From: Sedimentisphaerales bacterium
GTDB taxonomy: Bacteria; Planctomycetota; Phycisphaerae; Sedimentisphaerales; SM23-30
Reading direction: 5' to 3'
DNA length: 64,000 bases
NCBI GenBank assembly: GCA_963663965.2
Contig: CAXXFK010000029.1
Location: forward strand, 64,001-128,000
This document shows positions 47,791 through 59,683 of this stretch, piece by piece (position 1 is the stretch's first letter; each line of letters opens with the position of its first letter). The notes beneath the pieces are model-generated. The model did not search any database. It saw only the letters and a list, made by a program, of their open reading frames with translations, and was not told the origin of the DNA. Made by a program: the position numbers and the translations under genes.

Positions 47791-48519
47791 TTATCCTGGG
47801 AAGCGGCGGAGTATGCCAACTACAATTCCCTGGATATTAATATTTTTAATCCTGATGGGTGGGTAATCGGGATTTGAGGCTTGCAGACGGATAAAGCCCT
47901 TTTCTTTGAAAAACCGTTTTAATGTTGCTTCATTATTACTGAGAATCGCGACAACAATATCGCCATTTCTTGCTTCGTGACTGGGTTTAACCAGAACGAT
48001 ATCCCCATCACAGATATGATCATCGATCATACTATCGCCTTTAACAGACAGGGCGAAAGTTCCTTCACGCGTTTCAAAAAGTTTGCGAAGATCAATCCAA
48101 TCCGGGTTTTCAATGGCTTCGATCGGTTTGCCGGCGGCGATAGAACCGGCCAATCGATATTGGCCAGGTTCAACAGCGGGGGATTTTTTCGGGGATAATG
48201 CCGTGATGGTTTGTCGGTCAGGAACAGATTTAGTCCCTGACAGCCGCACCGACTCTGAGATGATCAAAGAGCGAGCTTTGTTGGCTTCGCGTCGAAGAAT
48301 GCCTTTTTTTACGAGAGCTTCGACATGCTCGAACACGGTGACTTTGCTTAGTTTGAGATTTTCGGCCAATTCCTGCAGGGTCGGGGAACAACCATGGTCG
48401 TTCCGGTAATCCTGGATCATACGTAATATCTGGACCTGGCGAGGGGTGAGTATTGCCGGATGCCGGAGGGTTGCGTTTAGCGATTCCCTGGACCGTCCGG
48501 TTTTTAATTTGGGTGGCAT
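47791..48519 (-). CDS. lexA: SOS repressor LexA
   Basis: LTPRQ..SPTLQEL HTH, IAAG cleavage site, GDSM Ser, ATLKR Lys; GGAGAG RBS. Confidence 0.95.
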   Translation of the reverse strand: MPPKLKTGRSRESLNATLRHPAILTPRQVQILRMIQDYRNDHGCSPTLQELAENLKLSKVTVFEHVEALVKKGILRREANKARSLIISESVRLSGTKSVPDRQTITALSPKKSPAVEPGQYRLAGSIAAGKPIEAIENPDWIDLRKLFETREGTFALSVKGDSMIDDHICDGDIVLVKPSHEARNGDIVVAILSNNEATLKRFFKEKGFIRLQASNPDYPPIRIKNINIQGIVVGILRRFPG

Positions 48520-48829
48520 TGTTATCTCTCCACGTAGTGTTAGTTTTTGCTGGTGAAGGCTGGCTGATCGTTTCGCAATCGATCAAATAGATTTTTTCGA
48601 CGGCAGGTTGATGAGATTCCTGTTCAATTTGATAACAGTCTAAACCCAGTAAAACCCGAATATTAGCCATCAAACTGGTTAAAACACGTCCGGATTGGGA
48701 ACTCATTTCCTGAAGTTTGCGGGTTTTTTCGTAACTTTCAGGCCAGTGGGTGACATAATCGCCACCTGGTCCAAATTGACAGACAGGAATTTTTTTGTCA
48801 GAGGGATTTGGTTTATTCTGCGAAAACAT
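48230..48829 (-). CDS. Hypothetical protein upstream of lexA, overlapping it out of frame by 290 nt
   Basis: ATG with AGGAG RBS 6 nt upstream; 199-codon frame; QQSSLFD near the C-terminus. Confidence 0.55.
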   Translation of the reverse strand: MFSQNKPNPSDKKIPVCQFGPGGDYVTHWPESYEKTRKLQEMSSQSGRVLTSLMANIRVLLGLDCYQIEQESHQPAVEKIYLIDCETISQPSPAKTNTTWRDNNATQIKNRTVQGIAKRNPPASGNTHPSPGPDITYDPGLPERPWLFPDPAGIGRKSQTKQSHRVRACRSSRKKRHSSTRSQQSSLFDHLRVGAAVRD

Positions 48830-48849
48830 GATAGGCTCCTGAGCAGGAT

Positions 48850-48976
48850 TTACCTGTCCCTAACTTCCAGGTATTGTTCAAACGCCAAAAACCGGCAGGA
48901 ACATCCTATAATAACCGGCATAAAACCAGTGTTACTGGTTAGGTGTTTGTTAGGGTATTATAGTATCGACCCGAAC
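48850..48976. promoter_or_regulatory. lexA-operon promoter region with candidate operator half-sites
   Basis: Minus-strand TATAAT at 48957-48962; GTTAGG at 48938 and 48949 (GTTA-N7-GTTA); TTAC-N7-TAAC at 48850-48864; CCGAAC at 48971. Confidence 0.5.
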
Positions 48977-49143: not shown

Positions 49144-50281
49144 ATGTTGACTAAAGTGAAAGAAGTAATCGAATTTAAATCTGACTCTGAGGGTCAATTA
49201 GATCTGTATGTCCATGGCCGGCTAGACTATCATTATGTTGCCCGGCAATGGTTGCAAATTCAAAAGCAAATTGAAAGACATTCATGTCGCAATCTGATTA
49301 TCCATGGTGAAGGCATGGATTACTGTGATGCCTCGGGAGTTTGTCTTCTGAGAGTGATCTATGACAAGCACCAGGCAGCAGGGGGGGCGTGCCGACTGGA
49401 CGGTTTCAAATCTCATGTCCTTTATCAATTTAATCTTGCCGAGCCAATTAAAAAACCTTCTGATGGATTTCAGGGATTAAAATGTTTATGCGATTGGATT
49501 GAACTTTACGGGAATAAGGCCGTTCAGTTTGCTCTGGACATTCGTCAACAAATCGAATTCATTGGTCATACCGGATCTGCGCTAGTAACGGTGATTTTGA
49601 AACCATCACGATTACGCTGGCTGGATACTTTTTGGACCATCCAGGCGGCGGGTGTCCAGGCGTTTGGGATTATTGCGCTGGTCAGCCTTTTGCTGGGTTT
49701 AATTCTGGCGTTTCAATCGGCAATCCCCTTAAGACAATTTGGCGCCCAGATATTCGTTGCGGATTTGGTGGCCATTTCTGTAGCTCGTGAACTGGGACCT
49801 TTATTGACGGCGATCATTCTTGCGGGCAGGACCGGGAGCGCCTTCGCGGCAGAGTTGGGCACTATGAAAGTTAATGAAGAATTAAATGCGCTGCACACGA
49901 TGGGGGCTCGATCCCGTAAGGTTCCTGGTAGCGCCACGAGTATTGGCGGCCTTGTTCGTCACGCCATTACTTTCGGTTTTTTCAATCGCCTTTGCATTGA
50001 TTGGCGCCGCGATCGTAATGCAGACCCTTGGTTTTACTATGGTCGCGTACATCAATCAAATTCAGAATGCTGTTTCATTAAAAGATATCTGGGGAGGACT
50101 GTTTAAGGCCTTATTTTTTGGATTGCTGGTGGCGTCGATTGGCTGTCAACGTGGTTTGCAGACCGGATCGGGCGCTCGTGCCGTCGGGGTCTCGGCAACT
50201 CGCGCTGTTGTCAGTGGTATTTTTCTGATATTAATTGCAGATGGCTTGTTTGCCGTGGTATTTTACATACTAGGGATATGA
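49144..50281 (+). CDS. mlaE: STAS + MlaE-family ABC permease, frameshifted by an extra G at 49902-49906
   Basis: YCDASG STAS motif; RELGPLLTAIILAGRTGSAFAAELGTMKVNEE; joins as MGLDPVRFLVAPR if one G is removed. Confidence 0.88.
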
Positions 50282-58269: not shown

Positions 58270-59683
58270 CACTCTTGTCCAAAATAAATTTTGACAATTA
58301 AATAGAGATATCTCCAGGATGAGTTATATTAAAGTTGCAAAAAAATAAAAAACTCAGCTGGAGATATAAACCCATGATAAAGTCAGGCAGTCTGTTTACG
58401 CAAGTACTTTCTCTGGTAGATCGTAATGAATTTGCCCGATCTGTAGATCGATTTGGGGCGGAAAAGCATTGCAAGGGCTTCCGTTGCTGGGATCAGTTTG
58501 TGTCAATGATGTTTTGCCAGTTGGCCGGTGCGAACTCCCTGCGTGAGATCTGTGGTGGATTATCCACGGCCCTGGGCAAATTGACCCATCTGGGCATGAA
58601 AGAGGCGCCCTCCCGTTCCACCCTGAGCTACGCGAATACTCAGCGGCCATGGCAGTTGTATGAAGCGACCTTCTATCAGCTTTATCAGTATGGCGCTGAG
58701 ATCGCCGGTAAGCAGAAGCGGCGCTTCCGATTCAAGAACCCGTTATTCAGCATAGATGCCAGCACCATTGACTTGTGCCTTAAGGTGTTTGACTGGGCCA
58801 GATTTCGGCAGCGTAAAGGAGCGGTGAAACTCCACATGATGCTTGATCACCAGGGCTGTTTGCCCAGTTGGGCCTGGATCACCGACGGCAAGGTTCATGA
58901 TGTCAAAGCGGCTAGAATGCTTGATTTAGAGCCGGGAACGATCGTAGCGATGGATCGAGGGTATGTCGATTACGAATTATTTGACCACTGGACTGAAACC
59001 GGTGTCTGGTTTGTCACCAAAGCCAAAAGTAATATGAACTACCGCGTGGTCGAATCTCGGGAGGTTCCTGAGAGAGGCAATATTCTGTCCGATGAGTTGA
59101 TCGAATTTACCGGTTATCAAGCCCAAAAAAGATGCCCTCGTGTGATGCGGCGGATTGTGGTATGGGATGCGGAAAATGAGCGTGAGATTACCTTGCTGAC
59201 CAATCATCTGACATTTGCCGCCAGCACGATCAGTTCGATCTACAAAGATCGCTGGCAGATTGAGTTGTTTTTCAAGGCGCTCAAGCAGAATTTAAAAGTA
59301 AAGACCTTTGTGGGTACCAGCGAAAATGCCGTCAAGACACAGATTTGGACAGCATTGATATGTAGCTTAATACTGAAGATCATGCAGATGCGTTCCCGTT
59401 TTGGCTGGAGCCTGTCTAACCTGGCCGCCCTGTTAAGGCTTAACTTGATGACTTATCGTGAGTTGTGGACATGGCTGGATAATCCGTATCAAACGGCGGC
59501 ATTAGGGCCGCCTGTCAACCAGCCCTTATTGTTTGAACTGTAACTTGGACAGCATGAAATATAACCGTATAAAAAAACAGGGTAACCTGAACTCAGAAAA
59601 TGGAAAAATCTGTCTGAAACAACCCTTTCAGGCCGGTTTAGAGACAACATGTTAGAGATTTCAATTTATTTTGGACAGCAGTG
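58270..59683 (+). mobile_element. Complete IS4-family insertion sequence, 1414 bp, with 21-bp terminal IRs and a 9-bp target duplication
   Basis: IRL CACTCTTGTCCAAAATAAATT; IRR (rc) CACTGCTGTCCAAAATAAATT, 19/21 identical; ATAAATCAT at 58261-58269 and 59684-59692. Confidence 0.95.
58374..59543 (+). CDS. IS4-family DDE transposase (DUF4372-like N-terminus)
   Basis: RSTLSYAN, IDASTIDL, MDRGY, YKDRWQIELFFK (YREK-type signature). Confidence 0.95.
   Translation: MIKSGSLFTQVLSLVDRNEFARSVDRFGAEKHCKGFRCWDQFVSMMFCQLAGANSLREICGGLSTALGKLTHLGMKEAPSRSTLSYANTQRPWQLYEATFYQLYQYGAEIAGKQKRRFRFKNPLFSIDASTIDLCLKVFDWARFRQRKGAVKLHMMLDHQGCLPSWAWITDGKVHDVKAARMLDLEPGTIVAMDRGYVDYELFDHWTETGVWFVTKAKSNMNYRVVESREVPERGNILSDELIEFTGYQAQKRCPRVMRRIVVWDAENEREITLLTNHLTFAASTISSIYKDRWQIELFFKALKQNLKVKTFVGTSENAVKTQIWTALICSLILKIMQMRSRFGWSLSNLAALLRLNLMTYRELWTWLDNPYQTAALGPPVNQPLLFEL

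Follow-up and report, generated by a model that had tools for sequence, protein, structure and literature searches.

What does an open reading frame (ORF) encode when it opens the lexA operon and then runs on into lexA itself in another frame? The window analysed here, meaning the whole stretch of 64,000 nucleotides, holds such an ORF (Table 1), and the original prediction was that it encodes a damage-inducible modulator that binds the β sliding clamp. The descriptive parts of that prediction agree with the sequence: the ORF has an ATG and an AGGAG, runs for 199 codons and continues 290 nt into lexA, lexA has a ribosome-binding site and an ATG of its own, QSSLF is found near the end of the ORF, and the tail is basic, with 18 K/R against 6 D/E over residues 104–199. 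The disorder proposed for that tail fits an AlphaFold model in which it is coil. Motif 1 and the direct repeat are additional to what had been noted before.

Table 1 Positions of the ORF, lexA and associated features in the window
Feature	Position	Strand	Details
Overprinted ORF, first of the lexA operon	48230..48829	minus	199 aa, frame −1 relative to lexA
lexA, 242 aa	47791..48519	minus	own GGAG at 48528-48531; Pfam domains
Shine-Dalgarno AGGAG of the ORF	48836..48840	minus	6-nt spacer to ATG at 48829
Candidate −10 TATAAT of the ORF-lexA operon	48957..48962	minus	from sequence
Direct repeat GTT[ACT]GG-N5-GTT[ACT]GG, candidate LexA operator	48938..48954	.	just downstream of the −10
N-terminal motif P[LVI]CxFGPGG[DE][FY]xxxWP, residues 14-30	48740..48790	minus	conserved; predicted hairpin
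Amphipathic helix, residues about 46-62	48644..48694	minus	from structure model
Motif 1, RPWLF in window	48386..48400	minus	read from lexA G-C/Y-S-P codons
Motif 2, QSSLF in window (consensus QG[ST]LF)	48266..48280	minus	read from lexA N-K-A-R-S-L codons

The start of lexA lies 310 nt after that of the ORF, and the lexA frame is open for 21 codons upstream of its ATG, to about 48582. Pfam places PF01726 at LexA residues 24–83 and PF00717 at residues 125–234, and the DNA-binding domain (about 48271–48450) falls entirely within the ORF. Among homologues of the ORF, 123/128 have an in-frame ATG no more than 30 codons from the N-terminal motif, and 82 of these carry a Shine-Dalgarno-like word. A consensus scan did not return a full sigma-70 site at the candidate −10, because the −35 is poor. 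In one set of contigs (run X1) there is an extra C at 48857, upstream of the ORF's Shine-Dalgarno sequence, which is absent in run X2.

To assess dual coding, 30 lexA loci at family and order level, the window's genome included, were picked by LexA similarity alone. In 28 of them no stop interrupts the −1 frame over the DNA-binding domain, where synonymous redraws of the codons give an expectation of 0.87, and 27 have QxxLF at the end of the ORF, against 0.09 expected. Among 58 lexA loci from other classes QxxLF was found in none, and the −1 frame was open in 23 against 11 expected. Judged by these outside-class controls, the null is too strict about openness by a factor of about two, which leaves the result unchanged; three fetched outside-class controls and one scan locus were excluded for gaps at anchor columns. 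For the window's own LexA, redrawn 100,000 times with the codon usage of the genome, the frame was open in 0.13% of cases and QxxLF appeared in 0.35%, and all three scored features occurred jointly in none.

The codons of lexA point the same way. We compared 131 distinct overlapped lexA genes; some come from ORF-picked loci, and the two loci L018 and L021 are not among them. In this set Ser84 is TCT in 126/127 genes (in the peptidase half, 65/721 are TCT), Leu85 is TTR in 129/129 and Arg83 is CGC in 126/130. Position 81 is K or R, and in all 45 genes with Arg it is encoded by AGR, a choice made in 22% of cases elsewhere; the change from K to R at this position is therefore silent in the ORF, where CAA and CAG both give Gln. 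Synonymous entropy of lexA is 0.68 at 38 sites in the overlap and 0.87 at 70 sites in the peptidase half, a difference whose significance value is overstated because the genomes compared are kin. The codons of the N-terminal motif vary freely at synonymous positions. Both the entropy comparison and the null test thus indicate purifying selection in both frames, as expected of a functional overlapping gene, and motif 2 is kept by a selection of its own. The proposals that the overlapping frame stays open in homologues, that QxxLF is kept there and that synonymous sites of lexA are constrained were all borne out, and dual coding is strongly backed. On this comparative evidence, the ORF is a conserved, real gene under protein-level selection on its frame and on both motif regions.

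Natural variety in the arrangement of the locus provides a series of controls. In the family that we label f13, LexA is near-identical, and 28 of 30 lexA-picked loci encode [KR]ARSL. Twelve of the 30 have TCT-TTG with QG[ST]LF or QSTLF, all with an open frame; of the other 18, 11 have stops in the frame. The original prediction had allowed that the motif could be a by-product of the NKARSL codons of lexA, which does not hold, as LexAs with the same KARSL residues and no ORF use other codons. It had also allowed that homologues might stop before lexA. This is seen in one genus only (L018 and L021), where the ORF stops just before lexA and retains both motifs, as Q[KS]WLF and QELLF, while the freed −1 frame of lexA has decayed and is full of stops. 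In three further genomes (G030, G036 and G049, which are 97, 96 and 94% complete), a full lexA was not found with the query used and lexA has a truncated or broken frame at the locus itself, and the ORF with both motifs persists (L037, L038 and L041, the last of which runs to the contig end). Three copies among these five un-overlapped or lexA-broken loci encode motif 2 with codons that are never used in the overlap; in L038 the Phe codon is now TTC, which is impossible within the overlap. These controls lead us to reject three explanations of the ORF, namely a by-product, an element in the DNA and an artefact of a frameshift. In a quick LexA tree with many open forks, the un-overlapped pair is nested inside the window's family, which is only consistent with the un-overlapped state being derived. 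Two genomes (G007 and G035, 99% complete) gave no match to the ORF or to full lexA with these queries, possibly through loss of the whole locus.

The gene ranges across most of the class, here taken as Phycisphaerae, with range counted by genome kinship labels. The class was read from the titles of related loci, which mostly name Phycisphaerae, Sedimentisphaerales or Planctomycetota, although depositors entered many as uncultured Pirellulales or Planctomycetaceae. From 341 stretches matched in the search for related loci, 80 were taken. A profile of the full ORF found stop-free matches in 18 of 19 genomes from other orders of the class, and outside the class gave only three weak matches, all containing stops, among 401 genomes. 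The N-terminal profile matched in 205/301 class genomes. Twenty loci from families outside the order, taken from these 205 N-terminal-motif matches, all overlap lexA, and 17/20 end in QxxLF. Our best explanation is that the ORF was born by overprinting the DNA-binding domain of lexA at an early stage of the class. The N-terminal profile had no match in 50 genomes of f13, and in 9 of the 12 ORFs retained there the N-terminal module is a different one; because the f13 ORFs differ at the N-terminus, the two-motif tail is the constant part of the protein. Part of the class can do without the gene, to judge from its absence at 18/30 f13 loci, and its presence in f13 is patchy. Gene callers predict the protein sometimes: we found 89 homologues, annotated as 'hypothetical' where they are named at all.

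In ten f13 loci (L388, L390–L393, L400, L402, L403, L407 and L408), the overlapped tail follows a conserved N-terminal module of unrelated sequence that ends in a helix like LD..EI.ALL, which may resemble the start of FliM, where CheY binds. Pfam gave no match to this module in the nine examples tested, and homology to the GPGG module was not detected (0.1%).

What, then, would the protein do? The AlphaFold model of the ORF product is mostly coil (mean pLDDT 61, pTM 0.22), with the N-terminal motif modelled as a hairpin at a pLDDT of about 80 and followed by the helix, and homologues differ widely in how long the middle of the protein is and in its sequence. Neither Pfam, NCBIfam nor PHROG gave a match to the protein, the ESM Atlas gave no usable hit, and a PDB sequence search returned nothing significant, the best hits (a xylanase at E 0.73 and a crystallin at E 0.38) being at chance level. 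The IMS polymerase and little-finger domains that define Y-family polymerases and ImuB are absent by Pfam and NCBIfam. A mostly disordered product with no enzyme domain is the best explanation of the model and these searches. The helix was also compared with the RecA-NT motif and set aside, at an hhalign probability of 1–6% against 84% for a control pairing a DinB tail with RecA.

The two motifs are spaced 40 residues apart in 45/50 scored members, and the basic linker between them persists after lexA loss. Clamp-binding proteins characteristically have a QxxLF-type pentapeptide in a region that is flexible and often terminal, and so does the ORF product; the textbook form QL[S/D]LF, with Leu at position 2, is not the form used, and QG[ST]LF dominates. 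QxxLF is described as the clamp-motif consensus, with QSSLF of PolA2 modelled in the clamp pocket, in an excerpt of PMC12926913, and PMC6511837 presents QL(D/S)LF as a tolerant motif and reports that the Gln can be dispensable in E. coli MutL. Such motifs have been suggested to be able to arise de novo (PMC3971601, in excerpt). Motif 1 is the less uniform of the two: it reads as QxxLF in 35/51 members, in 0/18 loci from other orders and in 17/64 scan loci, and its Q is absent in the window. Its variants in relatives include QQWLF, found in the window's own family, QPMLF, EPMLF and xxRLF, and its LF pair is partly expected from the LexA residues alone (7/30).

Comparison with the polymerases of the clade is informative. 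All three Pol IV of this genome carry QQWLF or QQLLF after the little-finger domain, and clade Pol IV in general have GQ[QKML][WLM]LF at that place, with QxxLF in 12/14 loci. Pol V-like proteins of the clade have QxxLF or QxxMF in 14/16 loci, the script having picked the wrong ORF in two of the 16, and their words include QG[SNH]LF (6/16), QLNLF and QRSLF. Motif 1 of the ORF, as QQWLF in the window's family, thus matches the clade's Pol IV word and motif 2 its Pol V word, and the genome encodes a canonical DnaN. From this identity with the motifs of the clade's Y-family polymerases, we infer that the ORF product may bind the clamp. QxxLF is short and common, with 355 occurrences in the ORFs of this genome, and there is no excess near their C-termini (17 seen against 18.6 expected); a C-terminal QxxLF scan, considered as a way of defining clamp partners, was dropped for this lack of enrichment. 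A predicted complex of DnaN with ORF residues 140–199 scored 0.07 against a mark of 0.32, in a run in which controls were not folded, and so speaks neither for nor against binding. A Y-family polymerase (PF11799) was not found in five genomes (G028, G030, G036, G039 and G040) in which the ORF persists, and for this reason such polymerases are not the sole reason for the ORF. Overall, we consider it probable that the ORF encodes an SOS-controlled, disordered and enzyme-free clamp-binding modulator, born by overprinting of lexA.

The genome has three close Pol IV paralogues (C42, C11 and C17; L228–L230) and one Pol V-like gene, and in the tails of the Pol IV paralogues the clamp motif is followed by a segment that resembles RecA-NT (hhalign 84% to RecA). 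QPLLF, the motif 1 word of some relatives, also ends a DDE transposase (PF01609, DUF4372) at 58374–59543 on the plus strand, of which the genome has several copies.

Of the competing explanations, the one that survives best is that the motifs are real and that xxxLF docks another protein, such as a protease, a helicase or another part of the replisome. Hydrophobic LF pairs bind a variety of pockets when they lie in disordered tails, motif 1 often lacks its Q, and 31/52 aligned members of the ORF family end in alanine, a possible degradation signal that is partly set by the lexA codons. Against this stand the selection of the motif 2 Q even when LexA changes, and the match of both words to those of the clade's own Pol IV and Pol V, which sit after the little finger, where such motifs usually are, so that we regard a different target as unlikely. 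The ORF might instead act mainly in cis, with ribosomes crossing the lexA start and tuning LexA output while the protein itself matters little. The lexA start does lie inside the ORF in nearly all loci, and a middle region so variable in length and sequence would be easily accommodated, but the amino-acid motifs are conserved despite free synonymous change and are kept after un-overlapping or lexA loss. A main role in cis is therefore improbable; a side role of this kind is still conceivable.

We give very little credence to the idea that the fixed lexA codons are a DNA or RNA element, or a by-product, with the −1 reading incidental to them. The nine bases under R-S-L are indeed nearly invariant, and the chance openness of the frame outside the class, noted above, would favour it. 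However, CAA and CAG replace one another freely, freed copies have different bases but the same residues, LexAs with the same residues and no ORF choose other codons, and further upstream conservation is at the protein level and in the frame of the motifs. Finally, that a sequencing or assembly indel, or a programmed frameshift, conceals a long LexA with an N-terminal extension is hardly credible: the open lexA frame does reach back beyond the ATG, a database protein (P0096) fuses ORF-frame sequence to the LexA peptidase half and a neighbouring mlaE-like gene is split by a frameshift, but the frame offset is identical throughout the class, lexA has its own Shine-Dalgarno sequence and ATG, the ORF tail is under selection beyond where such a shift would leave it, and the extra base at 48520–48582 on which the original prediction would have foundered is absent from the contigs of two runs (of one sample, probably the source, and so not independent of it).

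Returning to a clamp-binding product, we turn to its regulation. The direct repeat of Table 1 is present in 97/136 upstream regions of ORF-lexA loci, facing one way in the window's family and the opposite way in the rest of the order, and has an 11-bp period. This genome has seven matches to it, one of them at the ORF, one 42 nt before recA and another beside an integrase-like ORF. It lies upstream of recA in 5/41 genomes, in 4/16 Pol V-like (umuC) loci, and near umuD-like genes in some relatives. The repeat was missing at the three lexA-broken loci, at five other loci of the order among the 52 listed and at 17/18 loci from other orders; it was not found at the Pol IV and Pol V-like genes of this genome in the stretch checked, and genome-wide it is not commoner than a reversed control pattern. 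We read it tentatively as a LexA box serving a small regulon, through which the ORF may be induced by damage. Matches outside the window include G000:C25:250988 and G000:C15:259074.

The alphaproteobacterial LexA box is GTTC-N7-GTTC. Direct-repeat boxes at lexA promoters, as in Balneolaeota and Alphaproteobacteria, are a likeness to the arrangement seen here; unlike them, the present candidate has the consensus GTT[ACT]GG-N5-GTT[ACT]GG and a small apparent regulon. Such boxes arose independently, according to an excerpt of PMC7739468.

A possible mechanism can be outlined. The ORF and lexA would be co-transcribed from a LexA-repressed promoter, and LexA cleavage after damage would derepress the operon, so that the ORF product rises together with LexA. 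The product might then dock on the pockets of the β-clamp (DnaN) dimer via one or both motifs, possibly simultaneously, while the basic linker perhaps contacts DNA. Clamp occupancy could control the access of error-prone polymerases, as a brake or an ordering device, or the product could tether to the clamp a protein that its N-terminal motif recruits. The partner of this motif is probably not LexA, because the motif survives lexA loss.

Disorder and damage induction are properties of p21 and p15(PAF). The analogy to these proteins would be of a disordered, damage-controlled product with a clamp-pocket motif and no enzyme, the likeness being one of function only, as the motif class and domain of life are different. 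Binding of p21 to PCNA through its PIP motif is described in PMC9690074. The full reading in these terms is that the ORF product is a bacterial counterpart of p21, that is, a disordered protein that is induced by damage and arose through overprinting of lexA, which mimics the Pol IV and Pol V clamp motifs, spans both clamp pockets and couples the clamp to a second host protein via a portable hairpin that phages of the class have copied onto small proteins of theirs. We offer it tentatively, as somewhat doubtful.

The product shares its QxxLF in a flexible region, and its apparent SOS context, with β-clamp-motif proteins (Pol IV/DinB, Pol V/UmuC, PolA2, MutL, Hda and IS transposases), and its motif 2 QSSLF is the very word of PolA2 (PMC12926913, in excerpt). 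Unlike these proteins, it has two motifs at a fixed 40-residue spacing and no catalytic or folded domain, and it is encoded inside lexA. Non-polymerase proteins that act on DnaN are known in SocB of Caulobacter, which binds the clamp's hydrophobic cleft (PMC9690074, in excerpt), and RipA of Streptococcus pneumoniae, a DnaN-targeting toxin (PMC12795458). In contrast to SocAB and RipAB, no antitoxin gene was seen in the ORF operon, and the gene is chromosomal, class-wide and lexA-linked, with no family match. As an alternative-frame gene under purifying selection and probably born by overprinting, the ORF resembles olg1 and olg2 of Pseudomonas aeruginosa, which are antisense, genus-restricted and shown to be translated (PMC8850804, in excerpt). 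The present gene differs in being on the same strand, in spanning most of a class, in lying on a core regulator and in having un-overlapped copies, and its translation is predicted.

The databases searched gave no family or structure match to the product. A literature search of open-licence PMC and bioRxiv gave no match to this gene, and mention elsewhere is possible. Its ingredients, overlapping genes and clamp motifs, are each known separately. What sets the locus apart is a rare, old, same-strand dual coding in a core bacterial regulator, for which gene loss, lexA loss and a resolved overlap are natural controls, so that its birth by overprinting can be tested directly. The ORF is mostly hidden by annotation programs because of its overlap with lexA. 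If the clamp reading is true, there would be an enzyme-free SOS layer that gates polymerase access to the clamp. The locus also supplies a candidate LexA box for the order and a portable protein motif, new and also present in phages.

That motif, the conserved N-terminal one, is doubled in some members of the ORF family and also occurs apart from lexA. It ends small ORFs of 87–114 aa at four genomic loci, where phage-type primase, Sak4-like, nuclease or exonuclease genes are present, and three of these small-ORF carriers are weakly RMF-like, below the Pfam cut-off. A DNA pattern scan found the motif in six viral contigs that lack lexA, and in four of these it lies at an ORF end or close to one. 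Carriers of both kinds are L313–L316 and L350–L355. A tblastn search of annotated phages with the non-overlapping part of the ORF gave no match. The motif would appear to be a portable short docking motif, and its distribution suggests that phage ORFs mimic the host version. Near the operon, the mlaE-like permease gene at 49144–50281 on the plus strand is in two frames, split at a five-G run near 49901–49905, by either a homopolymer error or a real frameshift.
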